The position numbers were made by a program, and so were the translations under genes. From positions 40,507-104,506 of the forward strand of contig JAQVSG010000001.1 of the NCBI GenBank assembly GCA_028700655.1: a DNA stretch of 64,000 bases. Reading direction: 5' to 3'. Positions 2,556 through 52,299 of the stretch are shown piece by piece. Under the pieces are notes generated by a model that was given only the letters and a program-made list of their open reading frames with translations, was not told the origin of the DNA and did no database searches. Origin of the DNA: Caldisericia bacterium (GTDB lineage Bacteria; Caldisericota; Caldisericia; UBA6126). Position 1 is the stretch's first letter, and the number at the start of each line of letters is the position of its first letter.

Positions 2556-2587
2556 AGAAGTACCTTTTCCTATATTTGGAGGCTCTC

Positions 2588-11370: not shown

Positions 11371-11937
11371 ATGAATTTAACCCGTAAAGAAGAAAAAGAA
11401 TTAGTACTACGAGCAAAGCAAGGAGACTCAGAAGCTATGACTGTAATCTACAAAGAATTTGAACAAGAAATCTTACGAGCCGCTTATGGAGTTACAAAGA
11501 ATCCTGACGATGCACAAGATGTTGCAGCGGAAGCATTTATGACATTTTTTCAGACCATTGATCGTTTTAATACCGACTACCCCATCCGACCTTGGCTTCA
11601 TAGAATTATGCACAACCAGGCCAATTCTATGTTTCGGAAAAAGAATCGCGTTATCAGCAGTGGGGATTGTTTTGATAACTATACAATGGAACATTCTTCT
11701 CAAACCGATGAAAACCTTTTTGAAGAAGAAGACGTATCGTTGTTAAAGAAAGCATTGAATTTGTTGTCCATAGAAGAAAAGAAAATTTTAACTCTTTTCT
11801 ATATTGAAGACTTTTCCATCACAGATTTATCCGTCACACTCAACATTCCGGAAGGAACGGTGAAGAGCCGTTTGTTCAACAGCCGCAAAAAACTAGCAAA
11901 AAAAGTCCAACTTTGCAAAAAAGGGGGTGGATTTTGA
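11371..11937 (+). CDS. ECF (sigma-70 family, group IV) RNA polymerase sigma factor
   Basis: 188 aa. Region 2: DAQDVAAEAFMTFFQTIDRFNTDYPIRPWLHRIMHNQANSMFRKK. Region 4: LSIEEKKILTLFYIEDFSITDLSVTLNIPEGTVKSRLFNSRKKL. Confidence 0.92.
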   Translation: MNLTRKEEKELVLRAKQGDSEAMTVIYKEFEQEILRAAYGVTKNPDDAQDVAAEAFMTFFQTIDRFNTDYPIRPWLHRIMHNQANSMFRKKNRVISSGDCFDNYTMEHSSQTDENLFEEEDVSLLKKALNLLSIEEKKILTLFYIEDFSITDLSVTLNIPEGTVKSRLFNSRKKLAKKVQLCKKGGGF

Positions 11938-21264: not shown

Positions 21265-22455
21265 ATGCGAATAGATCGATTTAAGGAACGGGACATTTTA
21301 AAACAAGTTGAACCGTATCGTGAATCGAAAGAAGCAGTAATTATCACAGGTATGAGGAGGACCGGGAAGACTACTCTTTTACAGTATTTATTCGAGACAA
21401 CGGAATCAGAGAACAAGCTTCTACTAGATTTAGAAAATCCGTTAAATCGAAAGTATTTTGAAGAAGAGAATTTTGATAAAATACAGGCTTCTTTAGAAAT
21501 TCTCGGTATAAATTTTAGTGAGCCTTCGTACATTTTTTTGGATGAGATCCAGCTATTTAAGAATATTCCGAGTATTGTGAAGTATTTTATTGATCACTTC
21601 CAAACGAAGTTTTTCTTAACAGGATCAACAAACTACTATACAAGGAAGCAGTTTGAAGAATCGTTGGCTGGTCGAAAGGTTGTATTTGAGCTATATCCTC
21701 TTACCTTTAAAGAGTTTATAAAATTCAGTGGAAAAGGTTTGAATCCTCCCACCCAAAAAAGTAGTATTTCCAGGCCCATTTTCGAAAAACTTTCTACTTT
21801 GTACGATGAATATATTATGTTCGGGGGGTTTCCCGAAGTTGTTCTGAAGCAAAGTGTTACGGAAAAAAATGCTGCTTTGGACGATATATTTCGATCGTAT
21901 TTTAATCTAGAAGTTGTGCAAATGAGCAATTATCGAAAAAGTGCTGTTATCCGTGATTTAATGCTTCTTCTTATGAACCGAGCCGGGGAGAGAATTGATG
22001 TTCAGAATATTTCGCAGGAGCTTGGAATATCCAGAGCTACTACGTATTCTTATCTGGAATTCTTGGAAGGCTCCTATTTCATTAAACTTCTCAAGCCCTT
22101 TAATCTAGGATCTAAAATGGAGATTCGGAAATCGAACAAAATCTATATTTGTGATGTAGGTTTGGTTCGTCATTTTGCCCACGCGGCAGAAGATTGTTTG
22201 TTCGAGAACAGTGTTTTTCAAAATTTGCGCACAAAATGTGATATAAAATATTATGAGAGAAAAAGTGGTACACAAATACATTTCATTTGCGATGATCAAA
22301 ACAATAAAGTAGCCTACGATACAGCACTTCACCCTCGCAAGACAGACCTAACAAGACTGTCTAGAATTGCTAGTGAAATCAATGTTGATGAGTATTCTAT
22401 CATCTCAAAATACTATTGTGATTTAGAACACACAATGTACGGCTTTATGGTGTAA
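21265..22455 (+). CDS. AAA+ ATPase with a DUF4143-type C-terminal domain
   Basis: 396 aa. Walker A ITGMRRTGKTTLLQYL, Walker B YIFLDEIQ, and a C-terminal region typical of the AAA_14/DUF4143 family. It looks more AT-rich by eye than its neighbours (not computed). Confidence 0.8.
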   Translation: MRIDRFKERDILKQVEPYRESKEAVIITGMRRTGKTTLLQYLFETTESENKLLLDLENPLNRKYFEEENFDKIQASLEILGINFSEPSYIFLDEIQLFKNIPSIVKYFIDHFQTKFFLTGSTNYYTRKQFEESLAGRKVVFELYPLTFKEFIKFSGKGLNPPTQKSSISRPIFEKLSTLYDEYIMFGGFPEVVLKQSVTEKNAALDDIFRSYFNLEVVQMSNYRKSAVIRDLMLLLMNRAGERIDVQNISQELGISRATTYSYLEFLEGSYFIKLLKPFNLGSKMEIRKSNKIYICDVGLVRHFAHAAEDCLFENSVFQNLRTKCDIKYYERKSGTQIHFICDDQNNKVAYDTALHPRKTDLTRLSRIASEINVDEYSIISKYYCDLEHTMYGFMV

Positions 22456-22527: not shown

Positions 22528-25500
22528 ATGAAAAAAGGAATAGCCTTTATTGTCGCTTTTGTGTTAGCTCTTTCTCAGTTTGGTTTCTATACAGCCGTTA
22601 ATGCAATACATGCTATTGATGTTCTGGTTGTAAACCAAAGTGGCACAGACGATGTAGCCACAGGAGAAATTTCTGAATATACAATAGATTTTACTTTGGA
22701 TGAAGATGTAGCTCTTGATGATGTCATCAAGATCAAGTTTCCTACAGGTACCTCTTTTGTGAATGCAACCATCGACAAATCCAATGTTTTTGTGGACGGT
22801 ACCAATCCTACAAAAGATGCTACAGCATCGGGTACGATTCTTAGTATTCACACCCCTGCTGCCTACTCTGCGGGGGATATAATTTCTATCAATCTGCCCA
22901 TTGAAGCAGGTGTAAAAAATCCTTCCACCCAAAGCGGAAAATACAAACTGCAGGTGGGTACCTTTTTAGGGCCTAACGGGACAACGACCATCGAAAATTA
23001 TGACCAGTACTCCAACAATTACTATATTGGCCATCGATCGGAAGTTACGATTAGCCCCTCCGTAGATCCAAATTACAACACAGCAGGGGTTAAAAACATC
23101 AAAGAATTTGTAACGTGGACCATAAAGTGGAAAACTGGTAATCAGGGACACCTCACGGCTGGTAGCGATACAATAACCCTTGATTTTACTGGGAATACGA
23201 ACACTTTTCCAAAGCCAGATGGATGCTTTGACAACGGTTCTGGTGTTTATTTTATTCCGGCCACTTACATTCAAATTAACTCCAAAACACTAAAGAGTTC
23301 TGCCACTGCAACATTAAGCGGAGTTGCCCCAAACCAAACTCTTGATACAATCACCTTCACGATTCCCAATACACTTAGTGATATTTCTGCGAACGCAACC
23401 GTTACTATTATTCTGACCAATCAAGTAGGTATGTTTAACCCTCCCGCTGGGGATTATACTATCAAAGTAAATTCCAGCCGAGAAACAACCCCCATCTCGT
23501 CGCAGACAATTGCTGTTAATGATGCCGTATCATTTTATGATTTAGATGCCGTAAAAGCAGGTGTTCAGGGAGTTGTTGTAGATCCTCCCACAACGTCTAC
23601 CGTTGCCTCCTTCCAAATGGGAATCATTAACGACATCCCACTGTCCGTTGGCGTAGGTACAATAACCTTTGCCATGCCCATGACCATGACAGGAGTTCGC
23701 AACCCACCCATTACAGCAGTCCAATTTGAACATTCGATAGACGCTGGTGTAACCTGGGTTGAAACAACGTTAAAAACAGCTCCTATATTTACGGGTAGCA
23801 ATGTTGTTGTGACCGTTCCTTTAGATATTCCAGCCAACAGTCCTATCCGTGTTACTCTCACAAAAGATTTGAACATTAAAACACCCACCACCGCAGGCGC
23901 TTATAGTGTGCAAGCCATGACCTCGGCCCAACCCTATTACCGGAATTCTCCCACTTTTGCCATTGGTACAGGTGTATCGGGTGTAAAAGTAATTCCTTCT
24001 CCTGCCACCGATGATTCTGAAAATGTTCAGTATGTTGTTGAATGCAAATTAGGACAAAGTGGTGCTTTGTATAAAAGCACAGGGAAAATTTTTGTGGAAT
24101 TATTCCTCGGCAACGATCCTTTAACTTTCGATGGCATCACATTGTCCAATGGTTCTGTTTTCCTTGGAACTGGACAATATACAACCATTCCAACAGAAGT
24201 GGAAAGTCTTGGGGCAGGGATCTTTAAGTTTACGGTGTCTCCTCCACAAGACCTAAATGCCGGTGCCTCTGTAAAAATAACATTTAAACCCTCTGCAGGA
24301 TTCGTGAATCCTATTGCAGGTACATATAAAGGTATTGTTTACACCACGTCTGAGATGCTAGAATCCGAATCCGAATCGTATGAAATCCAAGATGCTATCA
24401 TGGTGGATGCGATTGATGTAGATCCTACCGCTGCAGGCGTAGATGCTGAATACACAATTACTGTGAGTATTGATGATAATCTTACCAAAAATATAGATAC
24501 TATATCTGTTGCTTTTCCTCAAGGACAAAGGCTTCCTACCACTATAACCCCGGGCGACATTTCCGTGGATGGTGTGGATGTCATATTATCCCCCAAGGTT
24601 TCCTCCAATGTCCTCACTTTTCATGTACCTATTGATATTCTCGCTGGTCCAACCTTTGATATTGTTTTGAAAAAATCTGCCAAAATTAAGAACCCAACAA
24701 CCGCTGGTATTTATAGACTGCAAGTAAATACATCCAAGCAAATTGCCTATCGCCTGTCCCCTCCCTTTAATATTGGAACCTCCGTAACGGGAATTGAAGT
24801 AATACCCTCTCCCGATACTGCCAACAGTGCCAATGTACAATACACAGTCAAATTCAAAATTGGTACCAACGGAGCGTTAACCGCAAACTCAGGCGATTTC
24901 ATATCCATTCAGTTACCCTTAGGAGAATTGCCAACGGCAGGCGCTTCTTCCATTACTGTGAACAATGATCGATGTATTGAAAACCCCACTATTACGGATC
25001 TTGGAGGAGGATTGTACGACCTTGAAGTGTATCCTCCCAAAGATTTGCGATCGGGTTCTCTTGTAACAGTAGTGTTTACAACTTCTGCTGGACTAAAAAA
25101 TCCGACGGAAGGAAACTATCGAATTACGGTCTTTACGAATAAAGAACCCATTCCTATGCAATCCGATATTTATTTAATCAAAAATGCCGTTGTCATCCAT
25201 TCTGTGGATGTAGAACCACCCGCTACAGGGGCAGAAGCAGAATACACAATAAGTATCGATATTGGGAAAAAACTGACAAAAGATATCGATACAATTACCA
25301 TTTCTTTTCCTCGCGAATCACGAATTCCTACCTCCATTAACAAGGGAAGTATTTCTATCGAAAACGATGGGGTTGTAAGAGATTTAACCCTTCCACCCAC
25401 CGTATCCAGTACTAGCATTACTCTAAAAGTTCCTGTAACCTATGATCCAACTCTCCCTGGGGCAGATCCTACTTTAATCATTGTTGTTAAACAATCTGCC

Positions 25501-28500
25501 AAAGTTCAGAACCCATCCACAGCTGGCATTTATACACTCCAAATATTGACGTCTTCGCAACCCTACTATCGAGTATCTCCCAATTATGCAATTGGTACTG
25601 CTGTAACCGACTTTAAAATTACGCCAAATCCAAAGTCCAAAAATACAGTAGATGTACAGTATAATTATGAGTTCAAAGTAGGTGCTAGCGGAGGGCTTAC
25701 GAAGAATGCAGATGAAATACATATCATCCAAAAAGTTGGTACCGCTGCTCCTCTTCCTATGCTACTACCAACATCGTCTGTAACTGTGAATGGAAAATAC
25801 ACTCAAGTTGCCACCGAAATCATTGAACCTACAAGTCCTCTTTATCCACCGGCGGCAGGATGGGTAGAAATTATTCTCCAAGTTCCCGAAGATATTCGAA
25901 ATAGCGGTACTGTAAAAATTGTGATAATGTCATCTGCAGGGCTTATTAACCCCACTGCTGGCAATTATAAGGGCGTGATATGGACCGACCAAGAGCCTAT
26001 TGCTGTTGAATCTGAATATTATCAAATTGAAGATACAATTCTGTTCTTAGGTCCTGTTATCGTAACTCCTCCTTCTGTGGGGCAGATTGCTGAATACGAA
26101 GTAAGTCTTCACTTGGATTTGGGCTTGCAAGCCAATCAAGGAACCATTACACTTGCTTTCCCAAGTGGAACTAAAGTCAATCGAACCATCCCCACCACAG
26201 GAATTACCATACAAATTGGTGCCGGTCCCGAACAAAATCTAAACATTGCTCCTCAAATATCGGGGACAAATATTACCATAACAACACCTTCCAATATTCC
26301 GGATGCAACCGATATTGTTCTTCGATTTAAAAAGAATGCAGGGGTAACAAACCCTACCACTGCGGGACTGTATCGACTGCAAGCAATGACCTCTTCACAG
26401 CCTTATTATGCCTTGTCCGAGTATTATGCAATCGGTAGTTCTATTACCGTTTTTGAAGTTACTCCTATGCCTAATAATATTGGTGGAGAAAGAGTTGTAT
26501 ACGTTGTCAAAATGAAAATCGGAGCCAATGGATTAATAGCAAACGAAGACCAGATATTCCTTAGCTTACCACTCGGTGCTCCTGCTGGAGCAGGCACTTT
26601 GCAGCCTAGCACAATCACTGTAAATGGTGAATTTACAACTCTGTCAACAAACTACCAAATTGATCCAACGTATGGTCCTCCCTATATCCAATTTGAAATA
26701 CCCACTCCTGTGGATGTGAAAGCGAATGCAGAACTCACGGTTGTTTTCTTGGAGTCGTGTGCCCTTACAAATCCTCTTACCGAAGGGATAAAATTTGGAT
26801 ATGCACACACTTCACAAGAAGATATTGAGATTAAGTCAAATCTTTACAATATTGTTGATTCTGTTGCTTTTCCAGGTATTAACCCACCTCTTGATATGCG
26901 ATCTGTGATCCCCAAATCCAACGGAATTTCTTTATCTGCTCAATATATGGTGCATTTCGTTACGTCACCTACGAAACCTCAACTCACGCAAAACTTAGAT
27001 CGTATCCATATTGTATTCCCCGATGGTACCACCGTACCATCCAGCATATCTCCAGGATCTATCTATATATCCACTGCCCCTATTTGGGGACCCGGAGACC
27101 CTGATTCTCTTACCTGTCCTCCACCCGTGGGAACAATTTTGAATCAATCCGTTACCATTACAGGACAAGAAGTATCCTTCCCTGTTCCCTTTACAGTTGC
27201 TCCTGGTTCCAATGTATATATTCTGTTTTGTAAAGATGCAGGACTGAAAAATCCTTCTAAACCACAAATTTACAATCTTTTGGTAAAAACGTCCACACAA
27301 CCCAACTATGGTATTTCACGTAACTACATTATTCGATCTACCATAACTCCTCCCGAAGTTTTCCCAGATCCACCTGTCATCAATCAAAATGCAGAATACA
27401 CAGTGCAGTTTACTCTTGGCGAAAGCGGTGCTATTACTGCAAACAATGATGATTTGTTTATAGGTTTTAACGGAGATGATTATCTAACTCCCGTAGGCAA
27501 CCTAGCTCCCTCCTCTGTGAAAGTGAATGGTGTGTATTGTACAACGTACTCCATAGTTACTGCAGGACCTGCTCTGCCGGGCAATGTTGACAATGCCCCT
27601 GGTTGGAACTTATATCGGTGGATACGAATACAATCACCAGTACATATAGAAAAAAGTTCTCAAGTAACCATTGAATTTTTACAGAGCGCCGGGTTTACTA
27701 ATCCCGCCGTTTCCAACAACTACACATGTATTGCATGGACCAATAAAGAACCCATTGCTATAGAGTCTTACCAATACACAATTGGTGATGCCGTACAAAG
27801 TTTGGAAGTACCCGCTACGCATCCCAACCCCAAAACAACTGGATCGTTTGCAGAATACCTTATTGAATTTGATCTTGGTGCAGATCCAGCTTCTCAATTG
27901 TATGCCAATACCAGTTCTATATCGGTCGAATTTCCAGAAGGTACAGCGGTTCCTTCCTATATCAACCCCGCCAATATTAAAATTGGATTTGGTGCTGTGT
28001 GCAATCCAACATTTTCTTCCGTACCTCCCATTACTGTTGAAGGGAATACCGTTACGTTCCGCGTTCCTGTTAATATTCCTGCGGGAGAACATGTTTGTGT
28101 GAAGTTTGAAAAGGGTTCTCAAATTGCCAATCCACAAGAACCAGGCTCTTATCAGTTAAAACTAAAAACTTCTTCACAACCAATTGCGGCCATTTCCAAT
28201 TACTATTCGATTCTTTCTACAAGCAGCATTCCTAGAGTTTCTGCAGCCCCACCTGCCATTAACGCCAAAAACGTTGCTTATGAAATACGTTTTAATACCG
28301 GAATCAATGGCAATATGCTGAAGGATACGGAAGACATAGTGATCGTGTTTGACCCAGCGTATATAGGAGACTATACCGTTGGTTTTGATCCCAACCCCTC
28401 TCCTTACCCAGCATTGACAACATCCATACCGCAAAATTCTGTCTATATCAATGGTATTGTGTTGAGTTCCATTCCTACTGTTGTCAATGATGCGGGAGAA

Positions 28501-31500
28501 TTAAAGTATATTAAACTGATTACTCCCGTTGATATAAGTGCAGAATCAGAAGTAGTAGTACAAATTACCAATATTGCAGGAATAAAGAATCCACCCACCG
28601 TGGGTCTGTATCGTTTGGCTGTGTTAACGTCTGTTGAGCCAACTCCTGTAGAGTCTCATGCTTTTAGCTTATTCTCTTCTGTTGGTGCTATTACTGTAGA
28701 GTTGGCCAAAGATGGTTTTGTAGAACCTGCGTTTCCTCCTGCCCCTGACCCAAGAGGTGCAACGCCAAATACGAATGCAGAATACATTATTCATTTCTCT
28801 ACCGGACCCTCGGGAAATTTGGTAAAAGATTTAGGAGCTATCACAATTGCTTTTCCTTATGATACCAAGCTACCCTCATCCATTTTACCAGGCTCTGTAC
28901 GATGTAAAATTACAAATACTATTCTTGGTGTTACGTTCGATGGGACTTTGTCACAAGCTCCCGTTGTTAACCAAGAAACCAATGAAATTGTGATCCGTGT
29001 TCCCGATGATGTTGAAGCCACAGATACTGTTGAAATCCGTTTTACAGAACTTGCCAATATTAAGAACCCGACACAATCTGGTACCTATTCCTTGGAAGTA
29101 TCTACTTCTTCAGAACCATTGTTAGTCCGATCCGATCCTTATTCAATTCTCGGACTATCGGCTGCGGACGTTTCTGTAGAACCTTGTTTACAACAACTAA
29201 CAGGTGCTGTAGTCAGTATCAATTTTACGACTGTGAATGCTTTAGCCATTGGAGATACTATTGACATAGAGTTTCCTTATGGTACTCGATTACCCTCTGT
29301 TATCGATGGAGATTTTGTAACCGTAAACAATCATCCTGCAAATATTGGGGCGTATCCCCAAGTGCAAGTTAATCAACAAATTGTATCGATCAAAGTACCC
29401 GAAGTCATTCAAGCATTGTCTACGGTACGGGTAGTATTTATTGAAAAAGCTCGTATACAAAACCCTTCCACTGGAATGTATTCTTTAAAAATCAAAGCGG
29501 GAGCAACAGATCCTGATCACCGATGGGTACATTCTAAAGACTACTTCATTTGTGGCGATTTTACATTGTATGCTGCCGAAATGATCCCTGATACTTTACT
29601 ACTCGGAAAGGGTCAAAGAAAACAGCTTGAAGTAATATCCTATGATGAAGATGGCAACGAGATACCAGCGGCTGGACTATCGTATTACTGGACAACGCAA
29701 GGGAATGCAGGTAGTTTAACAGATATAACGAAGAACAAAGCTACCTTAGTAGCCTCTCAAACGTCCGGTAGCGGTACGGTACAATGCGCTGTTACGTTTG
29801 GGAATACAACCATACAGGTAAGCGCTTCCGTTACCGTTTCTTCCACCACAGCACAATTGGTGATAAATCCTACGAGTGCCTCGATGTCTATTGGCGATAC
29901 AAAAACCTTTACCGCAGGAGCTTATAAACAAGATGGTAGTCCTCTTAACCTCACCTATAGCTGGAGGTTGGAAGGTGAATCCACCGGGACGTTGTCTCCA
30001 ACAACGGGACAAACAACCACGTTTACTGCTTCTTCTGCAGGAACCTCCAAAATTATCGTTTCTGCTACCTATGAAGGAGAAAAGCTTGAAGCGACTGCCA
30101 ACGTTACGGTTTCGGACAACGGAGGGCCTGGTCCTGGACCAGGCGACCAAGCTCCTATCCAAGCAACAATAACTCCAACAAGAGTGAATGCAAATCAAGG
30201 CGATGTTAACTTCAATTTTACGTTTACATCGGTGGCTGATATTTCGAATGGAACCATTGAGATCACTATTCCCTCTGGTTTCCCAGATCCTACCACAGCC
30301 CCTGGATCACAAGGTTATATAGCTGCATTGGCAGGAACAGGTGTGAATATTTCCAACCCTCCCAATATTCAAGGCAGAAAAATAATCTTTACAGTCATGA
30401 GTATGTCCATACGAAAAACATTCACAATGTCGTACTCAAAAGTATCTGCTCCTTCGACACCTGGTGAGTATATTTTCCAAGTACAAGGAAAACAAAACCA
30501 GGACAGTACCCTTGTGTCTGTAGAGGAACCTCCTGAAGTACTCGTTGTTTCAGTTGCTGACGGAAGTGGAAGAGCCAGTATTAATCCAAATCAAGCTTCC
30601 TCTGGAGCAACAGGGCAGCGATTCGAAATCTCCTATACCGCTGATGCACCTATGGACAGTGGAGCTGTACAAATCATCGTTCCACAGGGTTTCTCCAGAC
30701 CCTCTCTATCGTCCACTGCAGAAGGGTATGTTCGTCTAAAAGAGGATTCTCTAGACTTCGCGAATTCTCCCGAAGTGTTGGGCAATATCATTACTGTCCC
30801 TATTATGTCAATGGGTGTAAACGATAAGCTAACGATTATTTACGAAAATGTACGAATTCCTGCCCAACCCAATGTGTATACCTTTGTTGTCAAAAGCAAG
30901 GGGATGGGAGGCAGTTTTGTAGAGATTCCTTCAAGCCCCTCTGTCAATGTTAGCAATACAAGAATTTCCGATGCAAAAGTGGAAGTGGATCCCAATCAAA
31001 CATCCATGCCTGCAGAATATACCATATCGTTCCGAACCTCTGGTACTGGCTCTCTTCTGAGCGGAAAAGGGACCATCGAATTCATATATCCTGCCCAAAC
31101 GATCCTTCCCGATTCCATAAAGAGTAGTAACATTACAGTCAATGGTGAAGTCGTTACCTTACCACCCAATGTGGAATCTGTACGTAGTAAAATTACAATC
31201 ACTGTACCCAAAGATATCCCTTCGAATACCTTAGTGATTGTAAAATTTAGCATTGAAGCCAACATTGTGAATCCAGCAAAACCGGGGGACGAATACAAAA
31301 TATCCATTACTACCTCTTCCGATACCATACAAACATCAACAGATCCCTATACCATTGTTGTTTCAGAGCTTCGAAATATCAAAGTAGAAGTTTCTCCCAT
31401 ACAACCGGCTGCCATTGCAGAATATACAATTCGAATGAAAGTAGGAGGCGCGGGGGCTTTAAGTGTAAACCAAGACTCTATTACTGTCATCTTCCCGTCC

Positions 31501-33366: not shown

Positions 33367-33409
33367 CGACTTGTTGTAAAGTTTACTCCTACAACGAAGG
33401 AGGAAGGAC

Positions 33410-36400
33410 ATGAGCGCGAAAAAGATCATTAGTTTGTTGTTAGGATTTATGGTAATGTTCTCTATGGTTTCGGTTGGGTATTCCAGAATCACTACTTTTG
33501 TAAATGAACCCAACCCGAATACTGCAGGGACTCCTGCTAATCATACTTTAAAATTTACGAACACAGAAGAAATCCCTTTGGGAGGTCGTATTGAGATAGA
33601 GTTTCCCTCTGCTTTCGATTTATCGACTTTATCCATGGGAGCTCCTTTTGATGAGACAGATTTTGTGGTTACTTTACAAAAACCAGCAGCTTCTCCTACT
33701 CCTCCCGTTGTAAAGCCTGGATCTGTTATGCGTGATGGAAAGAAGTTGTCTTTTGAAATCGGCGACTCTAAAGTAGATCCTGGTTTTCAGAGAATTGAAA
33801 TCATCAATACAAAAATATTGAATCCCCCTACCCCAGGAAATTACACCATTCTACTACGAACCTACGATACGGCTGCGAATGGTCAAAGGCAGATTGAGTA
33901 TGCAACGTCTTCTCAATTTGAAATTGTAACAGAGATGAATCGTGCTTCTGTATACCCAGAACCAAACCGAGCGGGAGAAAGAGCCAAATACACAATTCGT
34001 TTCAAACTTGGAACGGGAACGAGTAGAAGTCTGTATGCTGGAGATCGTATTCGTATTCAGTGGGATGCCAATCTTGTACCCGGAGGCGATCCTACTAACG
34101 CTACGTTTATCCAAGCTCCCATTCCCAAAGAGTCTGTTACCGTAAACGGAGTGCATCCGCAAGTCGATCCACAATTTATCTCAGAAGGAATTCCAGAACC
34201 AAATCCCACAGGAAGTTTTTGTGAGATGGATGTTATTCTACCCAATAACATTAGTACGTCTTCTTCGTATGCTCCTGAAATTGTGATTGTGTTTGATCAA
34301 TCGGCAGGGATTATTAACCCCGATGGAGAATTGGACAATCGTACGATTGCAATCAGTGTCTACAGAAGCGATGGAATAACAGTGGTAGAGCCTGCTCTTG
34401 AATCCAATGCTTATTCTCTGAAAACATCCCTATTTGTTCCGGCTGTTTTTGTACAACCTGATAAAACAAATGCAGTCGCGGAATATCATGTTGCTTTCAA
34501 AGTAGGAGAGCAAGGGAAACTGATTGCGAATTCAGGAAAAATAACCGTTGAATTTCCTTCCGAAACCATTGTTCCCTCCACAATATCTGCATTTAGCATA
34601 AAAAATGCTTCTCCCCCTCCTGCTGTTGAACCTGTATTGCCCTATGCTGGTGGTACGGCAAACGCTCCTTATGATCCTCAAATCACAGGAAACAAGGTTT
34701 CTTTTGTGGTCCCAGAAACAGTTATGCCTGGTCAATACGTGTGTTTTATTTTTAAAACCGATGCAGGCATTCGCAACCCTGACAGAGAAGGTATTTATCA
34801 TTTAAAACTTTCAACATCGGCCGAACCTTCTGTGGTAACATCGCAGAATTATCGAATCCAGGGTTATAGTACAACAAGTGTTACCGTGGTTCCTAACAAA
34901 TCAGAAGAAGAAGCCGAATGGGATATCCGTTTTAAACTTGGATCTTCTGCTGGGTTGTATACATTTAACAACGATACTATTGCCATTACTTTTCCTCAAG
35001 GAACAGGTCTTCCTGCCATTGATATTCCTGCTGGGGATATCACCATCAATGGCGTTGCAACGACAGCACCAGCTGTGGTTACTCCGGCTACAAGGCAGGT
35101 TACCATCCTAGTACCGCAATCGATTGAACAAGGTTCCAATGTTGTAGTACGCTTTAAAAAACAAGCAAAAATAAACGTCCCCACCATTGATATAACCCCC
35201 AAATATTTTACGTTGAAAATTGTAGTTTCGACCGAAACAGATCCCTACATATCCGACCCTTTTGAAGTGTATACATCCATTGACAATCTGGTTGTATTAC
35301 TAAACGATCCAGGGGTTGGTGTTGTTTCTCAACAACAGGTTTCCTTTACACTAGGAGATGTGGATGAAGGATTGAAAGCCAATGAAAGCATTACGTTTGA
35401 GTATCCCGCAGGAACCAATATCCCTACTTTTGTCAATGCAGGGAATATTCGAATCTTGAACGTAACTTCTGCTGTGGAAATGAATCCATCGTCGGTACAA
35501 GCAAGTGGTCAGAAGATTAAAATTACTTTACCCACGACATTTCCTACTATTTTAGAGAAAGATCCTGTGCGTGTTACCTTCTTATCAAGCTGTGGTATTA
35601 CCAACCCAACCGAACCGGGATCCTATACTCTGAAAGCCTATACTTCGAAAGAAACCACGCCGGTTCAATCCGAATTCTATACGATTGGTACTGTCTCTGG
35701 AGCAGTTCAAATTTTCGTAGACCCAAAAGCATCTGGGTATTGTATCCCACAACCTACCATCCCCAAAAACAATAAAGGAGCAGAGTATACCATACAATTC
35801 CTAACCGGATCTAGTGGTGGTATCTCCAACGGTCAGTATGTGACAGTTGTATTCCCTCCTTCGTATGCCACGATTTTTAATACCAACTATCCGGCTCCTA
35901 CCAATATCATTCCTTCTGGTACCATTATGATCAACGATCAACCTGTAACCATGGGATCAAATATTGTGGATGCTCCTGCTTCCTATCCTCCTGGTTCCAA
36001 AATGGTTCAAATTCCTTTGCCTGTTTCAATTGGAACCAATGAAAAAGTGTCGATTCGATTTCTAGAATCAGCCGATATTGACAACCCTGTTGTTACAATC
36101 ACTCCGCAACCTTTTACTATCCATGTATTTACAGCCACAGAATCCTCCGCTGTATCGGGCACTTTTTATCTGTATTCTCAAATAGAAGGTATTGGGGGCA
36201 CGCCCATTAATAGCAATTTGCCCATCAATGTAACTTTATCGAATTATACCGCGGGGCGAGATTGCGGTATTGAGTTTGGTTTTAAAACTGGCCCAATAGG
36301 AGCTTTAAAAGCAAATTCCGATACAGTTTCTGTGATGCTTCCACAAGGCACACGACTTCCTTCCTATATCGCCTCTGGCACCATCGTGGTAGATCAAGAT

Positions 36401-39400
36401 GGTATTATAAGCGGAAACGAAGTAGCTGTCTTAAATCCTAAAATTGATCACAATATTGTGACATTTACAGTCCCATTTGATGTAGGAAATCTTGACGACC
36501 TGTATGTGTATTTTACAGAGCAAGTGGGAATGCTAAACCCCAGTGCTCCAGGGAATTACCAAGTGTTTGTCAAAACGTCTTCTGAAGAAAACTATATTGG
36601 ATCGCTAGAATACACTATTAATCCAGTTTCCTACACCATTCCTACGGTCACCATCAAACCTGCTTACATCGGTGTCGATGGCACCTATACAATTCGTTTT
36701 CAAACCGGTTCGTATGGAAACTTGAACATGGGCGATACCATCAATCTACGCTTTCCCCTAGATACTACTATTCCTGCTTCCTTAAACTCCTCCTATGTTC
36801 GCGTCAACAATGTTCGTTGTTCAATTAACCCGTTAACGAACCCTGCTGATCGAACCATACAAATTTATAGCCCCGTGGCCATCAATGGGAACTCGACCAT
36901 TGAAATCACTCTTCTCGAAGATGCCAAAGTGAAGAACCCAACGATAGCGGGCAAATACAACATGGAAATGTGGACCCTACGAGAAGGTTCTAAAAACAAT
37001 CCATTGATATCTAGCGAGTATGAGATTTATGCCAATACCAGCCCCCTTCATATTACTACCGATATTTCTCCTTGCACTCCCTATACCAATGCACAATACA
37101 CTTGTGAGTTTTATACCCCCGAGGCTATTGTTGCCAACACAACAGAAGTGGAAATCACCTTTCCAAATGGTACCTTTATTCCCTCTTCTCTCGATTCATA
37201 CACCATTATGTTTGGCTCTACATACTGTAGGACAACACCAACCGTGGCACAATATACCGTTACCTTGGTGTCTCCTATTGCGGTTGGGAAAAATGACCTT
37301 GTGAAGATAACCTTCACAAAAGAAGCCGATATCCAAAATACAAGCGAAGGGTCTCACAAAATGTATTTTGAAGTTGTTGGACCCGGATTGGTTCGTAGAG
37401 ATCTAGATGTATATATTTGTCCCGATTTAGATATAAACCGTGTAGAAATCACTCCCAATGATGTCCGAATTTCAGAAGGCAAATCGCAAACCTTTACCGC
37501 GTTTGCCTACGATGCCAATGGAAATCGAATTACTCGTGGTGTCGTATACCACTGGAGCTTGTCTGGTGGCATTGGCTGGCTAAGTAGCTTCAAAGAAGAA
37601 AGAACCGAATTCTACGCCAGTGATGTAGGCAAAGGAAGCGTTACCGTTACAGTATCATACGGTTCTCAATCGTCGATTACTGTGTCCTCTATGGTCACAG
37701 TAGTAGGTCCTTTGGATCGCATCGTGCTATCACCCACTTCCATTACCACTTCTCGTGGTAAAAAGACACGATTCATGGTGACTGCTTACGATGGACAAGG
37801 AGAAATGATCGACGATGTTACCTATACTTGGTCTGTCGAACCTTCTCTGGGAACAATTGATAAATTAACCAACCCCAACGAAATCGACTTTTTAGCCTCA
37901 TCAGAAGGTCGATGTACCTTGCATGTAACTGTTAAACAGAAAGATGTGTATCGAGAATCATCCGCCGATATTGAAATTCGAAACGGAGTTCATGATTTGC
38001 GTTTTGATCCTCCTTCGTATCCGGCCCCCTTTGAACCGTCCCAAATCATAGGACCCATTGTTGTAAAAATGGTCGATCAAAGTGGAAATCCCATTGTTCA
38101 AAATAGTATCTATACCATTACTCTGAAATCTTCCTCCACCACCACTCGATTTTCTTTGGATGGAGCCACATGGACGGAACAGCACACAATAGATGTGAAC
38201 GTATCCCCTAATTTTTCCGAATCGATGCCCTTTTATGTGTCTGACTTGGAACAGGGCAATATTTCTGTTACTGCTACATCCAAAGATTACAATGCTGCCA
38301 TTATGACGCTTAATATCCGGGGTATTAAAAAACGGTTGATGTTTCAGACTCCTCCTCGGCTTTTGCGTATTAACAAACCATCTGATCCCATCAAGGTACA
38401 GCTAGTTGATATCTTTGGTAATGCGTACAAAATGAACAAAGACATATTGATTGACGTCAAAGCCGACTCCCATACCGTGACTTTTTCAACCTTTTCTTCT
38501 GTAGAAGAATGGCTTCCTCAAAGTAGTATTTTGTTGAAAGCGGGAGAAGAGAATAAGGATTTTTATTGTATGGATTCGCGAGAAGGATCATTCAATATAA
38601 CAGTATCGCATCCCTTGTTTGGTAGCATTACTCAGATGGCAATGGTGGCTTCTCCAGGTTCTGTAAGTATGCCTGAAGTAACAGTAAACCCTTCCACCGT
38701 AGGTGCAAAAGCCACCTATGAAATTGGTTTTACTCTAGGACTTGATGGAAGCTTGGGTACAATATCCGATACGATTACCATCCAATTTCCCAAAGAAACC
38801 ATTCTTCCTAACTATCTGTCTGCACAAGATGTTCTCGTGAATGATAATCCAATGTTCACAACACCCTATATTGATGCTGCCAAGAAATTTATTCGCATTG
38901 TTCCCCCCATTGAGTTAAATGGAGGACAAAAAATTGAGATCGTGATCAAAGGGATCACCAATCCTTCGACAGAAAATGATTATCATATTACTGTCTTTAC
39001 CTCAAAACAAACGACACCTTCTCTTTCTTCTGCCTACCATATTGGTGTATCGTCCGTTACAGATGTAACTGTATCCCCTGACCCTGTAATTACAGGGGAA
39101 ATTGCCCTTTATGAAATTGCATTCCGAACGGGTGTGTCTGGTGCCTTAGAATCGGGAGATACAATTGTTATATTGTTTGATTACAATTTTACATTGCCCA
39201 AGAAAATTACCAGAAATACAGTGATGGTGAATGGAATCATTCCTTCAGCCGATCCCATTGTATCCGGAAAATCTGTAATTGTGAAAGTAGATCGAGCTAT
39301 TGGGATTAACACCAACGTGGAAATCGTTCTTACTAAAGAGGCAGGTATTGTAAATCCTGAATTTCCAGGTATGTATCAATGCAGACTCTACACATCCAAG

Positions 39401-41050
39401 GAAGAATCCAGTGTAGAATCAGAACCTTTCCAAATTGTAGATCGCTCTACTTTACAACGTATCAAAGTCCAATTGAAACCCGCTAGTATTGCTTCCGAAA
39501 CGCAAATTACCATCACTGGAAATCTAGGACCGTATGGTGCTTTAAACCGTGGAGAAAACATTTATGTTTCTTTACACCCGTTTATCATGCCAGAAGATCT
39601 ACATGGATCGTACGTTTCCGTAAACGGTATTCGGTTCAGTGGGACTCTAGAAGTTCAAAAGAAAGTTGTTTCGATACCTCTTTCCATGAATCTTTCCAAT
39701 GGAGCAGATATTACAATTACTTTCTACAACCAGGCAGGTATTATCAATCCAACAGTTCCTGGATACGATTATAGAATTAGTATGTGGACCGACAAAGAAC
39801 CAGCACAGGTGATGTCAGAACCATTTACGGTGGAGCCAAACCTAGAAATTGATTGTTTACTAACTCCGGATGCTCCCGATGGAATATCCAATTGGTATAT
39901 TACAGCCCCCACAGCTATTTTTACATCGAATGTGATGGGAACTTTCTATTACCGTATCGATAACAGTATTGAAAAAGAGTATACGAATCCAGTGTTGTTA
40001 AATCTTCCCGGAAAACACACCTTGTACTATCGTTTGGTAACCAATATGGGTACAGAATCAGAAGAATACAACGTAACTTTTGCATACGACGGAGACGGAC
40101 CGGAAATTCTTACGAATATTGAATCAGAAGTTGTCTATACGCGGGATCAGACATTTGCCTTGTCGATCCGTATCCAAGATATTTCTCCTGTTAAGGTGAC
40201 TGTGAATCAAAAGCCAATTACTCTCATTGAAAATACCTATTCCGCACTTTTGAATTTGCACAATGGAGAGAATATTCTTCAAATTAAAGCGGAAGATGAA
40301 GCTGGGAATATAACCTATGCCACTTACCGCATTATTGTGAAAGTGAATCCACCTATTCTCGTCTTGTCTTCCCCGCAACTTTATCAAACGGTGGAGGATG
40401 TGTATTTTTCCACTACACCCAATGGAAATGAACTGTATGCCAATATTCGAATAAAAGGCAGTACTGAAATGGGTATAGAGAAAGTACAAGTAATGACTCC
40501 TGCAAAACCTGATGAAACCTTTTTGCTCGATGTTGATCATATGGGAACCTTTGATCGAGTGGTGGGAATGTCGGTATTAGCAGGAGACAACATCTTAAAA
40601 GTACAAGTGGAAGATTTAGTTGGAAATACCAACAGTGTAACCATCTCTTTCATTGTACGATGTACTCTCAAATTGCGCATTGGAGTTGAAAAAGGGTATT
40701 TGAATGCAACACCACTTACGTTAGATGCAGCACCCTATCTGAAATACAATATGCACACCATGATACCCTTCCGATTGGTTGCAGAATCGTTTGGCGCTAA
40801 AGTTGGATGGCTTGAATCAGAAAGACGAGTTTCTTATGATTTCCGAGGGGTTCATATTGATTTATGGATTGATCAACTGAAAGCTGTGATTACAGAGTCG
40901 GATGGAAGAAAAACAACCAAAGCAATGCCTGCAGAACCCGAACTAAAAAATGGAAGAACCATGATACCTCTCCGTTTTGTGGCTGAATCTATGGGCATGA
41001 AAGTGGGTTGGGATGCAAAACTATGGGAGGCTTCTTTAAGCTATCCATAG
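33410..41050 (+). CDS. Giant secreted surface protein (2,546 aa): 9 FP-NP modules, 2 Big_2, 2 Ig-like domains, 3 FP-NP modules, OmpL47-like, Ig-like domains, CuAO-N pair
   Basis: Lies 43 nt after the previous stop, with RBS GAAGGAGGAAGG. Signal peptide MSAKKIISLLLGFMVMFSMVSVGYS. Hallmarks: KILNPPTPGNYTILLRT, AGIRNPDREGIYHLKLSTS, CGITNPTEPGSYTLKAYTS, VGMLNPSAPGNYQVFVKTS, AKVKNPTIAGKYNMEMWT, GITNPSTENDYHITVFTS, AGIVNPEFPGMYQCRLYTS, AGIINPTVPGYDYRISMWT. C-terminal ELKNGRTMIPLRFVAESMGMKVGW. Confidence 0.93.
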   Translation: MSAKKIISLLLGFMVMFSMVSVGYSRITTFVNEPNPNTAGTPANHTLKFTNTEEIPLGGRIEIEFPSAFDLSTLSMGAPFDETDFVVTLQKPAASPTPPVVKPGSVMRDGKKLSFEIGDSKVDPGFQRIEIINTKILNPPTPGNYTILLRTYDTAANGQRQIEYATSSQFEIVTEMNRASVYPEPNRAGERAKYTIRFKLGTGTSRSLYAGDRIRIQWDANLVPGGDPTNATFIQAPIPKESVTVNGVHPQVDPQFISEGIPEPNPTGSFCEMDVILPNNISTSSSYAPEIVIVFDQSAGIINPDGELDNRTIAISVYRSDGITVVEPALESNAYSLKTSLFVPAVFVQPDKTNAVAEYHVAFKVGEQGKLIANSGKITVEFPSETIVPSTISAFSIKNASPPPAVEPVLPYAGGTANAPYDPQITGNKVSFVVPETVMPGQYVCFIFKTDAGIRNPDREGIYHLKLSTSAEPSVVTSQNYRIQGYSTTSVTVVPNKSEEEAEWDIRFKLGSSAGLYTFNNDTIAITFPQGTGLPAIDIPAGDITINGVATTAPAVVTPATRQVTILVPQSIEQGSNVVVRFKKQAKINVPTIDITPKYFTLKIVVSTETDPYISDPFEVYTSIDNLVVLLNDPGVGVVSQQQVSFTLGDVDEGLKANESITFEYPAGTNIPTFVNAGNIRILNVTSAVEMNPSSVQASGQKIKITLPTTFPTILEKDPVRVTFLSSCGITNPTEPGSYTLKAYTSKETTPVQSEFYTIGTVSGAVQIFVDPKASGYCIPQPTIPKNNKGAEYTIQFLTGSSGGISNGQYVTVVFPPSYATIFNTNYPAPTNIIPSGTIMINDQPVTMGSNIVDAPASYPPGSKMVQIPLPVSIGTNEKVSIRFLESADIDNPVVTITPQPFTIHVFTATESSAVSGTFYLYSQIEGIGGTPINSNLPINVTLSNYTAGRDCGIEFGFKTGPIGALKANSDTVSVMLPQGTRLPSYIASGTIVVDQDGIISGNEVAVLNPKIDHNIVTFTVPFDVGNLDDLYVYFTEQVGMLNPSAPGNYQVFVKTSSEENYIGSLEYTINPVSYTIPTVTIKPAYIGVDGTYTIRFQTGSYGNLNMGDTINLRFPLDTTIPASLNSSYVRVNNVRCSINPLTNPADRTIQIYSPVAINGNSTIEITLLEDAKVKNPTIAGKYNMEMWTLREGSKNNPLISSEYEIYANTSPLHITTDISPCTPYTNAQYTCEFYTPEAIVANTTEVEITFPNGTFIPSSLDSYTIMFGSTYCRTTPTVAQYTVTLVSPIAVGKNDLVKITFTKEADIQNTSEGSHKMYFEVVGPGLVRRDLDVYICPDLDINRVEITPNDVRISEGKSQTFTAFAYDANGNRITRGVVYHWSLSGGIGWLSSFKEERTEFYASDVGKGSVTVTVSYGSQSSITVSSMVTVVGPLDRIVLSPTSITTSRGKKTRFMVTAYDGQGEMIDDVTYTWSVEPSLGTIDKLTNPNEIDFLASSEGRCTLHVTVKQKDVYRESSADIEIRNGVHDLRFDPPSYPAPFEPSQIIGPIVVKMVDQSGNPIVQNSIYTITLKSSSTTTRFSLDGATWTEQHTIDVNVSPNFSESMPFYVSDLEQGNISVTATSKDYNAAIMTLNIRGIKKRLMFQTPPRLLRINKPSDPIKVQLVDIFGNAYKMNKDILIDVKADSHTVTFSTFSSVEEWLPQSSILLKAGEENKDFYCMDSREGSFNITVSHPLFGSITQMAMVASPGSVSMPEVTVNPSTVGAKATYEIGFTLGLDGSLGTISDTITIQFPKETILPNYLSAQDVLVNDNPMFTTPYIDAAKKFIRIVPPIELNGGQKIEIVIKGITNPSTENDYHITVFTSKQTTPSLSSAYHIGVSSVTDVTVSPDPVITGEIALYEIAFRTGVSGALESGDTIVILFDYNFTLPKKITRNTVMVNGIIPSADPIVSGKSVIVKVDRAIGINTNVEIVLTKEAGIVNPEFPGMYQCRLYTSKEESSVESEPFQIVDRSTLQRIKVQLKPASIASETQITITGNLGPYGALNRGENIYVSLHPFIMPEDLHGSYVSVNGIRFSGTLEVQKKVVSIPLSMNLSNGADITITFYNQAGIINPTVPGYDYRISMWTDKEPAQVMSEPFTVEPNLEIDCLLTPDAPDGISNWYITAPTAIFTSNVMGTFYYRIDNSIEKEYTNPVLLNLPGKHTLYYRLVTNMGTESEEYNVTFAYDGDGPEILTNIESEVVYTRDQTFALSIRIQDISPVKVTVNQKPITLIENTYSALLNLHNGENILQIKAEDEAGNITYATYRIIVKVNPPILVLSSPQLYQTVEDVYFSTTPNGNELYANIRIKGSTEMGIEKVQVMTPAKPDETFLLDVDHMGTFDRVVGMSVLAGDNILKVQVEDLVGNTNSVTISFIVRCTLKLRIGVEKGYLNATPLTLDAAPYLKYNMHTMIPFRLVAESFGAKVGWLESERRVSYDFRGVHIDLWIDQLKAVITESDGRKTTKAMPAEPELKNGRTMIPLRFVAESMGMKVGWDAKLWEASLSYP
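33500..37420 (+). repeat. Protein-level tandem array of nine FP-NP modules (canonical and degenerate exits largely alternate); limits approximate
   Basis: Modules 1, 3, 5, 7 and 8 have canonical NP-x(2-4)-G-x-Y exits. Modules 2, 4, 6 and 9 are degenerate: IINPDGELDNRTIAISVY, INVPTIDITPKYFTLKI, IDNPVVTITPQPFTIHV, IQNTSEGSHKMYFEV. Confidence 0.7.
37427..37985 (+). other. Two Big_2 domains inside the 2,546-aa protein
   Basis: VEITPNDVRISEGKSQTFTAFAYDANGNRI...YHWSLSG...GSVTVTVSYGSQSSITVSSMVTV and IVLSPTSITTSRGKKTRFMVTAYDGQGEMI...YTWSVEP...CTLHVTVKQKDVYRESSADIEI. Confidence 0.75.
40661..41047 (+). other. C-terminal pair of CuAO-N-like repeats (putative envelope anchor)
   Basis: LKLRIGVEKGYLNATPLTLDAAPYLKYNMHTMIPFRLVAESFGAKVGWLESERRVSY and IDLWIDQLKAVI...EPELKNGRTMIPLRFVAESMGMKVGWDAKLWEASL. 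Confidence 0.85.
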
Positions 41051-52291: not shown

Positions 52292-52299
52292 AAAAAAAG

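Follow-up and report, generated by a model that had tools for sequence, protein, structure and literature searches.

Two tandem giant secreted proteins of a Caldisericia bacterium are built from a chained Ig-like module with candidate relatives in DUF2808 and BslA

BslA is the self-assembling coat hydrophobin of Bacillus subtilis biofilms. It is an extracellular protein with a single Ig-like sandwich domain of about 180 aa, which carries a leucine cap (L76, L77, L79, L119, L121, L123, L124, L153, and I155) and a CxC tail. The 'BslA-like' literature was found to cover Bacillus orthologues only. The DUF2808 (PF10989) proteins are small, single-domain, secreted, and mostly cyanobacterial; no functional data were found in the literature on DUF2808 or PF10989. 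The fibrillar adhesins (AgI/II, PrgB, Bap, SasG/Aap, and SiiE-type) combine a signal peptide, a long beta-sandwich array, a tip domain, and a surface-attachment module, either LPXTG or a T1SS retention module. The repeats of adhesin stalks are usually near-identical and variable in number; some conserved giant adhesins do have diverged repeats. Earlier papers describe the Cu_amine_oxidN1 domain (PF07833) both in hydrolases of the wall and in a Syntrophomonas protein of S-layer-like type (PMC4137172, PMC3582634); the domain was predicted to be a wall-binding module of monoderm hydrolases and surface proteins (bioRxiv 10.64898/2026.09.23.753664). The secreted protein Swol_0133 (Syntrophomonas wolfei) has this domain at its C-terminus; it is abundant and envelope-associated (PMC3582634), and an S-layer role was only proposed there. 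Electron micrographs of the Caldisericota show a second layer in the envelope, yet the phylum has no LPS genes, no BamA, and no predicted outer-membrane proteins (PMC4104836, PMC5007114).

The locus compared here with these systems lies in a 64,000-nucleotide stretch of DNA (the window) from a Caldisericia bacterium. Two same-strand ORFs, 43 nt apart, fill 18.5 kb or 29% of the window; these figures were given in a preliminary description and hold, with both frames intact. The first gene (22528..33366, +) is an intact ORF encoding a protein of 3,612 aa (386 kDa, pI 4.7). The second (33410..41050, +) is an uninterrupted ORF encoding a protein of 2,546 aa (278 kDa, pI 4.9). Sec-type signal peptides had also been proposed for both giants, and the translations agree on direct inspection, with MKKGIAFIVAFVLALSQFGFYTAVNA and MSAKKIISLLLGFMVMFSMVSVGYS at the two N-termini. 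In the 3,612-aa protein, the putative peptide covers aa 1-26 (22528..22605, +), read by eye as MKK, a hydrophobic core, and AVNA. Both genes have an AAGGAGG-type Shine-Dalgarno sequence 6-8 nt 5' of the ATG, and their codon usage equals that of the housekeeping genes in the window. No terminator or promoter signals above background were found around the giant genes. In the best explanation, both genes are real and expressed-looking, and probably encode non-enzymatic cell-surface proteins.

The genes come from metagenome data, and very long repetitive ORFs are well known to be at risk of misassembly. The two genes might be regarded as chimeric or misassembled repeats, or as decaying pseudogenes, with no functional feature. 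However, no DNA-level repeats were found in the giant genes, so assembly collapse or expansion of repeats is of no concern. The frames are without interruption, and orthologues of the identical 3,612-aa length occur in independent assemblies. The 3,612-aa gene has a dN/dS of 0.06 at a dS of about 1.1, with zero indels over 2,263 codons, which shows purifying selection, and the orthologue alignment forms a single gapless block of 2,270 residues with 72% identity. Similarly, the orthologue P0010 of the 2,546-aa protein is also 2,546 aa long (89.8% identity, 0 gaps), and the orthologue P0014 has 2,518 aa at 45% identity. An assembly artefact is excluded as the origin of the giant ORFs; the explanation by artefact or pseudogene decay has a negligible probability and is already refuted.

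A module profile was iterated from one module (codons 612-747) until convergence. In the window it detected 39 modules, whose individual domain E-values range from 1e-14 to 1e-43. The 3,612-aa protein contains 21 modules (16, then 2 divergent, then 3), and the 2,546-aa protein contains 12 (9 + 3). Earlier counts by eye, 21 (19 + 2 divergent), 12, 5, and 1 for the two giants and two smaller paralogues, were exactly reproduced. Three sequence landmarks described before were recovered as well. The consensus of 27 aligned modules reads V.V.P...A.Y.I.F..G..G.L at the entry, I...FP..T..P..I....I.VN in the middle, and AGI.NP...G.Y.L...TS.E.....S..Y at the exit.

In the 3,612-aa protein, modules 1-16 cover aa 35-2339 (22630..29544, +) in the HMM domain table. 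Modules 4-14 form an A-B super-repeat that switches between two subtypes, with 36% identity at lag 2 vs 26% at lag 1. A pair of bacterial Ig-like domains follows (29545..30159, +; PKD E 1.5e-4 and Invasin_D3 E 7.8e-4, both under the Pfam cut-offs). The next segment (30160..30897, +) holds the two divergent modules at aa 2545-2659 and 2682-2790 (module HMM E 5e-18 and 2e-14), which are the most BslA-like copies. Modules 19-21 cover aa 2803-3204 (30934..32139, +; module HMM). The C-terminal cassette (32140..33363, +) consists of a weak OmpL47-type barrel-like stretch (NCBIfam, 23 bits vs the 40-bit cut-off), a Glucodextran_B Ig-like domain at aa 3297-3368 on the same + strand (Pfam E 3.4e-12), and Cu_amine_oxidN1 at aa 3500-3609 (33025-33354, +; Pfam E 4.4e-49), a putative wall anchor. 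The 2,546-aa protein has a similar layout. Modules 1-9 cover aa 26-1318 (33485..37363, +), and modules 10-12 cover aa 1751-2139 (38660..39826, +), both by the module HMM. Between them lies a non-module Ig-like region (37364..38659, +), which matches Big_1 (E 9.4e-6) and Big_2 (25.3 bits vs the 22.8-bit cut-off). The cassette (39827..41047, +) contains Glucodextran_B and then Cu_amine_oxidN1 (aa 2431-2539; 40700-41026, +; Pfam), in the same order as in the 3,612-aa protein. The preliminary description spoke of a Big_2 pair. An Ig-like pair is indeed present, but its likeness to Big_2 is only marginal in view of these matches, and 'bacterial Ig-like pair' is the safe label.

The inference of a beta-sandwich building block was borne out by AF2 modelling. 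The single-module model (pLDDT 94.8) is all-beta with an Ig-like beta-sandwich, and the three-module model has a pLDDT of 91.7 and a pTM of 0.68. In the latter, the exit strand is followed by about 3 residues and then by the entry strand of the next module. With the three-module model, Foldseek retrieved integrin legs, mastigonemes, and surface proteins with tandem Ig domains, among them AgI/II and PrgB. The module had also been set apart from FN3, cadherin, Big_2, PKD, Cna-B, and cohesin, and none of these was found at the Pfam cut-off in 27 window modules and 63 diverse modules. Isolated single-module matches to Big_5, Big_8, and Cadherin-like (E 0.002-0.02) occurred in the same two sets. 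NCBIfam has no model for the module, and nothing below E 1e-3 was found for its fold in a viral structure library. PDB sequence-profile matches to formylmethanofuran dehydrogenase and to phage spike and baseplate beta-helices (E 0.002-0.05) are at chance level, and involve only the short I.I.FP...I.VNG segment. PF27071 and PF27332, which appear in the precomputed tables of two homologues, can both be discarded as the module family, since each is present in no more than 1-2 of 53 homologues. Pilin-type isopeptide or ester cross-links were set aside on inspection of the consensus, in which N, P, Y, T, and S are conserved but neither Lys nor Gln is.

A scaffoldin-like platform might also be built from beta-sandwich modules. 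In this case, cohesin-type docking modules would organise secreted enzymes, such as the neighbouring C25 peptidase, at the cell surface. There is a weak Foldseek match to a cohesin-like module of C. perfringens (2jh2, E 8e-3, TM 0.43), and the giant peptidase encoded in the cluster shares the anchor domain. However, the 2jh2 match is no better than those to many other beta-sandwiches. Pfam cohesin gave 0 matches in about 90 modules scanned, and no dockerin-like partner was identified. We consider docking of enzymes by these modules to be hardly credible.

The sole recurrent Pfam match of the modules is DUF2808. It was found in 12 of the 27 window modules at E < 1, with a best single-module E of 1.1e-5, and in 12 of the 63 diverse modules at E < 0.1 (best E 5.4e-6); module 5 scored 23.5 bits (E 6.2e-5). 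The alignment of one module extends over profile positions 9-127 of 146, and the strongest matching part is the exit landmark AGI.NP...G.Y. Against the cut-off of 25.3 bits, the scores were 51.6 bits for the 3,612-aa protein, 21.6 for the 1,161-aa paralogue, and 19.0 for the 2,546-aa protein, and PF10989 is annotated in 10 of 53 homologues in precomputed tables. However, most single modules fall under the cut-off. Whereas DUF2808 proteins have one domain, the Caldisericia proteins (553-3,612 aa) chain 1-21 modules. The preliminary description had called the module apparently unnamed. That view has to be amended for the recurrent DUF2808 match and a weaker link to the characterised BslA family. 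Since DUF2808 is itself uncharacterised, its score in the 3,612-aa protein is not a match to a characterised family.

The link to BslA comes from both structure and sequence. In the Foldseek search with the single module, BslA/YweA were the nearest small single-domain solved folds (4bhu: E 5.7e-4, TMq 0.53, TMt 0.58; 5mkd: TM 0.49-0.52), and pilin and CBM2 sandwiches had scores similar to that of 4bhu. The module and BslA are also similar in size. The hhalign comparison of the 63-module profile with the BslA sequence (E 4.9e-5, probability 68%) placed the landmarks in register, with FP.G on LPSG, VNG on LNG, and NP..G.Y on LPAAGTY. The Pfam BslA model (PF17735) matched 2 of the 63 diverse modules at E < 0.1; its best match is a divergent module at aa 2553-2657 of the 3,612-aa protein (21.0 bits, E 3.5e-4). 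These comparisons suggest that the module is a distant relative of DUF2808 and BslA, although the links are weak. The three probably belong to one Ig-fold superfamily.

The same evidence might suggest a hydrophobic coat of the BslA type, in which chained hydrophobin-type modules would self-assemble and cover the filament or biofilm with a water-repellent film. However, the best PF17735 match is far under the 38.7-bit cut-off of that model. Of the 7 alignable cap positions, only 2 consistently have a hydrophobic residue in the modules; at the other 5, A, S, G, P, or K predominate, and the loop alignment is uncertain at such a distance. The giants have chained domains and a wall-anchor cassette instead of a single domain with a CxC tail, and no conserved Cys was found in the module consensus. 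The GRAVY of the giant proteins is also about 0, and their pI is 4.7-4.9. A water-repellent film is judged very improbable.

Exhaustive profile searching, together with a homologue search with the 1,161-aa paralogue, was used to survey the module family. Clustering at 50% identity gives 2,363 clusters, and 460 of these are at E <= 1e-30. The module is not rare. When the module profile was used in a word-indexed search, the only homologues returned were 2 fragments. Among the best 150 representatives of the family, a Cu_amine_oxidN1-like domain is present in 51 (at the extreme C-terminus in 49), another 49 have a T9SS-sorting-like domain as their last domain, and the two domain types never occur together.

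The module arrays are strictly conserved between species. Module counts and lengths are unchanged among orthologues down to 45-51% identity, where the differences amount to only about 3% gapped residues. By comparison, paralogous modules within the window have a mean pairwise identity of about 25%, with a maximum of 48.5%. The modules are old and diverged. These properties bear on the possibility that the giants are classical fibrillar adhesins, in which a passive module stalk would present an adhesive N-terminal tip to other cells, to syntrophic partners, or to surfaces, whether mineral or organic. The order of signal peptide, long tandem Ig array, and putative surface anchor is that of such adhesins. 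The best multi-domain Foldseek matches include the Gram-positive adhesins AgI/II, PrgB, Bap, and Sdr/Clf. Divergence from the profile is greatest in the three N-terminal modules, which might be specialised, and there are homologues with T9SS tails, as is typical of surface adhesins. However, adhesin repeats are usually near-identical, whereas those of the giants are about 25% identical, with a copy number fixed across species to about 50% orthologue identity. The adhesins have LPXTG or a T1SS retention module, whereas the giants have Cu_amine_oxidN1. No tip domain was found: the arrays begin just behind the signal peptides, at aa 35 in the larger giant and aa 26 in the smaller, and the distal end has no adhesive or lectin domain recognisable by Pfam or NCBIfam. 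The N-terminal module shows 59-87% identity between species, similar to the other modules, with no sign of diversifying selection. Because conserved giant adhesins with diverged repeats exist, adhesion is compatible with a fixed architecture. An adhesin stalk is nevertheless considered rather unlikely here.

The module number, order, and loop lengths are frozen between species at about 25% identity within a protein, which argues for fixed-length structural elements. In our preferred reading, which we hold to be somewhat probable, the giants are structural rods or coat proteins of fixed length, with the C-terminal Cu_amine_oxidN1 fixing them to the wall, and not variable adhesin stalks. Following Sec export, this domain would retain the protein on the cell wall. 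It lies at the extreme C-terminus in 4 of 4 paralogues (E 1e-25 to 1e-49); no SLH domain was matched in the giant proteins, and Cu_amine_oxidN1 is the candidate anchor. Judging from the three-module model, the linkers between successive modules have only about 3 residues, and a head-to-tail chain of 21 or 12 such Ig-like modules may form a long stiff rod. By analogy with typical Ig arrays (4-5 nm per domain), full extension would give rods of about 100 nm or more for the larger protein and about 80 nm for the smaller. Such elements could form a fibrillar coat, a spacer, or a sheath-like layer of the envelope, possibly by co-assembly with the 1-module and 5-module paralogues.

These paralogues and other conserved genes lie upstream of the giants. 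The 1,161-aa paralogue (15832..19317, +) has a signal peptide, an Ig-like domain, 5 modules, and a C-terminal cassette as in the giants; its 15 orthologues (46-84% identity) have 5 modules in 15 of 15 cases. The smallest paralogue (14135..15835, +) has 566 aa from the first ATG, and the length of 553 aa given earlier applies from the second Met; it contains a signal peptide, 1 module, Glucodextran_B, and Cu_amine_oxidN1. An ECF sigma factor gene (11371-11937, +; Pfam Sigma70_r2/r4) overlaps that of a 754-aa anti-sigma-like protein with an HxxxCxxC motif and one TM helix in its translation. The pair (11371..14177, +) lies directly 5' of the module genes, is kept in orthologous loci, and might control their expression. 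Two family-2 glycosyltransferases were assigned by domain matches and orthologous loci, one in the conserved cluster (9245..10669, -) and one between the 1,161-aa and 3,612-aa genes (19211..21142, +); they may glycosylate the giants. A 2,218-aa C25-family peptidase (2576..9232, +), identified by domain matches and synteny, contains an internal Cu_amine_oxidN1. An AAA_14/DUF4143 ATPase gene (21265..22455, +) lies directly 5' of the 3,612-aa gene, and is kept in those related MAG loci that reach that far. The entire cluster, with the glycosyltransferases, the C25 peptidase, and the ECF sigma/anti-sigma pair, is syntenic in six MAGs.

An adhesin, S-layer, or sheath role, as suggested before from the sequence, is plausible in view of the architecture and the source organism. 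Several features are compatible with an S-layer, including the acidic pI, a Thr/Ser/Val/Ile-rich composition, the clustered glycosyltransferases, and a predicted wall-binding-type domain. Swol_0133 is similar in export and C-terminal domain, but is much smaller than the giants. A rod of at least 100 nm would far exceed the typical S-layer thickness, which counts against an S-layer. A more specific proposal is that the four paralogues (1, 5, 12, and 21 modules) are building blocks of the 'outer membrane-like' envelope of the Caldisericota. In this scheme, the outer layer would be a proteinaceous sheath, in which covalently chained self-assembling domains of the BslA/DUF2808 type would form rods of invariant length that fix the distance to the wall. 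Such a sheath is a speculative and unlikely possibility at present.

In summary, the module defines a large extracellular family without a dedicated model; DUF2808 picks up only about 1/5 of its modules, with weak scores. A dedicated profile would allow giant surface proteins to be annotated by the thousand in Caldisericota, Cryosericota, KSB1, and further lineages that bear a T9SS. The relationship would join two formerly isolated families, DUF2808 from cyanobacteria and BslA from the Bacillus coat, and the BslA link may provide the first functional lead for DUF2808, namely surface-layer or coat assembly. The giants are unusually rigid in evolution, over thousands of residues without indels. 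They are therefore concrete candidates for the outer-layer material of Caldisericum.

The two giant ORFs lie on the + strand at 22528-33366 (3,612 aa) and 33410-41050 (2,546 aa), with a gap of 43 nt between them and an AAGGAGG-type ribosome-binding site upstream of each. A typical Sec signal peptide was read from the start of both translations, and the giant proteins are predicted to be exported. A module profile, seeded with one module and iterated on the proteins of the window, converged after one round and returned 39 modules (per-module E 1e-14 to 1e-43). The 3,612-aa protein contains 21 modules (16, then two divergent ones, then three), and the 2,546-aa protein contains 12 (nine, then three). 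The paralogues of 1,161 aa (15832-19317) and 553/566 aa (14135-15835) contain five modules and one module, respectively. The ORF calls and translations agree with the preliminary description of two adjacent genes with signal peptides; its module counts were returned exactly, and its three sequence landmarks reappear in the consensus of the module alignment. In the wider family, the median length of a full-length module is 138 aa (5-95% range, 131-154 aa). Paralogous modules share 25% identity on average (maximum 48.5%) and are old. No repeats at the DNA level were found in the giant-gene region; misassembly of the giant ORFs is therefore no concern. In the 3,612-aa protein, modules 4-14 (23944-28665) show two subtypes in alternation, a feature absent from the preliminary description, with 34-36% identity at lags 2 and 4 versus 26% at lags 1 and 3. 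This pattern implies an A-B super-repeat, which expanded by duplication of a two-module unit, and perhaps a two-module structural period.

Comparison with orthologues showed that the giant genes are real and under tight constraint. An 84%-identical orthologue of the 1,161-aa paralogue was found in the independent assemblies ERZ27252306, ERZ27252292, and SRR10872672; in these contigs, too, the called length of the next large gene is exactly 3,612 aa. The first 2,263 codons of the two 3,612-aa genes align without any indel, with 88.8% amino-acid identity, dS of ~1.1, dN of 0.067, and dN/dS of 0.06. In the alignment with a 72%-identical orthologue, one gapless block still spans 2,270 residues, and each module in it is 59-84% conserved. 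The 2,546-aa protein has a 1:1 orthologue of the same length with 89.8% identity and 0 gaps (P0010). More distant 1:1 orthologues of the two giants are P0003 (3,580 aa, 50.6% identity, 106 gapped residues) and P0014 (2,518 aa, 45% identity). The codon usage and GC3 of the giant genes resemble those of the housekeeping genes in the window. An artefact has practically no chance of being the explanation, given the independent assemblies with a 3,612-aa orthologue, the low dN/dS, and the absence of DNA repeats. The earlier reservation that the ORFs might prove broken on resequencing is removed by the same-length orthologues, this ratio, and the indel-free alignment.

The module had been described as an apparently unnamed β-sandwich building block distinct from the classical named repeats. 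Pfam and NCBIfam scans were run on whole proteins and on single modules. No single module matched FN3, cadherin, Big_2, PKD, Cna-B, or cohesin at the Pfam cut-off, and no NCBIfam model matched the module in either type of scan. The distinction from classical repeats thus holds, and the predicted structure is all-beta. The word "unnamed" does not hold, since the module is a distant relative of DUF2808 and BslA, and its family is large. PF10989 (DUF2808) is the sole recurrent Pfam match, with 51.6 bits for the 3,612-aa protein (cut-off 25.3 bits), E < 1 for 12/27 window modules, and E < 0.1 for 12/63 diverse family modules (best E 5.4e-6). One module covers profile positions 9-127 of 146, and precomputed tables already assign PF10989 to 10/53 homologues. 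The literature mentioning DUF2808 merely lists the family and gives no function; a search for "PF10989" found nothing. PF27071 and PF27332 are assigned in the same kind of tables to the homologues P0171, P0177, and P0197.

The link to BslA recurs in three independent ways: Pfam score, Foldseek match, and hhalign. BslA matches the divergent module at aa 2553-2657 with a Pfam E of 3.5e-4. The BslA sequence, confirmed against 4bhu, aligns to the 63-module profile in hhalign with E 4.9e-5 and 68% probability, placing FP.G on LPSG, VNG on LNG, and NP..G.Y on LPAAGTY; the register is unchanged with the 27-module profile (E 0.0096). In Foldseek, BslA/YweA matches with TMq 0.53 and TMt 0.58. The module, DUF2808, and BslA probably form one superfamily, and the module appears to lie outside both families as now modelled. 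A BslA-like hydrophobic film would be one reading of this relationship; it is improbable, because the hydrophobic cap is not kept in the modules (consistently hydrophobic at just 2/7 alignable positions).

AlphaFold2 gave models of high confidence; that of a single module, based on an alignment of 27 paralogous modules, has a pLDDT of 94.8 and a pTM of 0.87. Its Foldseek matches in the PDB are all weak (E 3e-4 to 1e-3), and include an EbpB pilin domain and a CLIPPER domain besides BslA/YweA; this makes the predicted fold an Ig-like sandwich of generic type, without a close solved relative. In the three-module model (pLDDT 91.7, pTM 0.68), the exit strand (S..Y.I) joins the entry strand of the next module via ~3 residues, and the model suggests that the array is stiff. 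In the PDB, the three-module model matches tandem-Ig surface proteins, integrin legs, and mastigonemes, with low TM (~0.25).

Both giants share one domain order: signal peptide, module array, Ig-like insert, three modules, and C-terminal cassette. The insert starts with a marginal PKD/Invasin/Big_1/Big_2-type pair, followed by two divergent modules in the 3,612-aa protein and by more Big_1/Big_2-type domains in the 2,546-aa protein. The cassette consists of an OmpL47-type barrel-like stretch, which is weak (23-24 bits versus the 40-bit NCBIfam cut-off), Glucodextran_B, and Cu_amine_oxidN1 (E 1e-25 to 1e-49); the last two also form the C-termini of the one-module and five-module paralogues. The giants have an acidic pI (4.7-4.9), with Thr, Ser, Val, Ile, and Pro as abundant residues. 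Chained Ig-like modules make up almost the whole of them, and no catalytic or ligand-binding domain is recognisable. Cu_amine_oxidN1 occurs in wall hydrolases (PMC4137172) and in a Syntrophomonas protein that is abundant and S-layer-like (PMC3582634), and is treated as a predicted wall-binding module (bioRxiv 10.64898/2026.09.23.753664, a 2026 preprint). The giants end in this domain, which monoderm bacteria carry on cell-wall hydrolases and on surface proteins. They probably bind the wall through this C-terminus, with the module array projecting as a rod of ~100 nm or more (3,612 aa) or ~80 nm (2,546 aa), assuming 4-5 nm per domain.

The invariant module number, order, and loop length, together with the deep divergence between positions, suggest contacts specific to each position, an arrangement more in keeping with a defined supramolecular structure than with an adjustable stalk. 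On modest balance, the giants are probably structural components of fixed length in a coat, spacer, or sheath; the clustered GT2 enzymes possibly glycosylate them, and the ECF pair next to the module genes possibly regulates them. The chief alternative, though an unlikely one, is that they are classical adhesin stalks; a role as scaffoldins is very improbable.

Scanning genomes with the 1,161-aa paralogue identified six loci (65-85% identity), five labelled Caldisericota or Caldisericia and the sixth a "Calditrichota" MAG. The latter, L007 (DAIMET010000010.1), carries the full Caldisericia cluster at 80% protein identity and has probably been mis-binned or mislabelled in the public record. Gene order is kept in the six loci and in metagenome contigs, as far as each contig reaches: a C25 peptidase with a Cu_amine_oxidN1 domain, a GT2 on the opposite strand, a GAF protein, an ECF sigma factor, an anti-sigma-like protein (HxxxCxxC motif and TM helix), the one-module and five-module proteins, a second GT2, an AAA_14/DUF4143 ATPase, and the giant gene. 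The C25-family (gingipain-like) peptidase at the conserved cluster head (2576-9232, 2,218 aa) carries internally a Cu_amine_oxidN1 domain, the putative wall-binding module that also ends the giants, and could process the module proteins or be displayed alongside them. At 11371-14177, directly upstream of the module genes, the ECF gene overlaps the start of the gene for a 754-aa anti-sigma-like protein, with a zinc-finger motif and one TM helix, whose extracytoplasmic part (~630 aa) has no Pfam match; the pair is kept in orthologous loci. The ATPase, which has an HTH (21265-22455), stands between the glycosyltransferase and the giant gene in all related Caldisericia loci reaching that far, and is an odd companion of envelope genes. 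An 842-aa ORF at the window start (17-2545) matches none of the Pfam families at E <= 0.01 and contains no module copy by the module profile. Downstream of the giant genes are a thioredoxin gene, rimP, nusA, infB, and more housekeeping genes; the locus is therefore core chromosome. This remainder of the window (41166-64000) also holds genes for a DHH phosphoesterase, ribF, ftsH, tilS, pdxS, cca, der, gpsA, and thrS, a tRNA-Met (52299-52373, - strand), and two tRNA-Pro genes (61480-61654).

An exhaustive profile search revealed a large family: 2,363 clusters (50% identity) at E <= 1e-3, 460 of them at E <= 1e-30. Some relatives carry the name Candidatus Cryosericum. The best 150 of the 2,363 clusters have 3-24 modules per protein (median 7). 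Among these 150 representatives, a Cu_amine_oxidN1-like domain occurs in 51 (extreme C-terminal in 49), a T9SS-sorting-like domain ends 49 (one named from candidate division KSB1), and none has both. Surface proteins thus use the module widely as a building unit, in combination with different attachment systems. Besides these two groups, the representatives (P0003-P0152) include a third, of module proteins of ~1,900-2,500 aa with Arg-rich N-termini and a common C-terminal motif, ...T(V/I)xIYNxxG....VDVxGW(Y/F), which marks a putative attachment or sorting domain.

[quoted passage not shown] The phylum has no core LPS genes (PMC5007114), and is among the lineages discussed as having become monoderm (bioRxiv 10.1101/2021.05.31.446380; see also PMC7203096). 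The conserved cluster, with its giant, putatively wall-anchored proteins whose modules are related to a self-assembling coat protein, is a concrete candidate for the source of this outer layer, though a speculative and unlikely one. Giant tandem-Ig surface proteins are already known as a kind; those described here differ in a module family that existing models cover poorly and in an unusual evolutionary rigidity.
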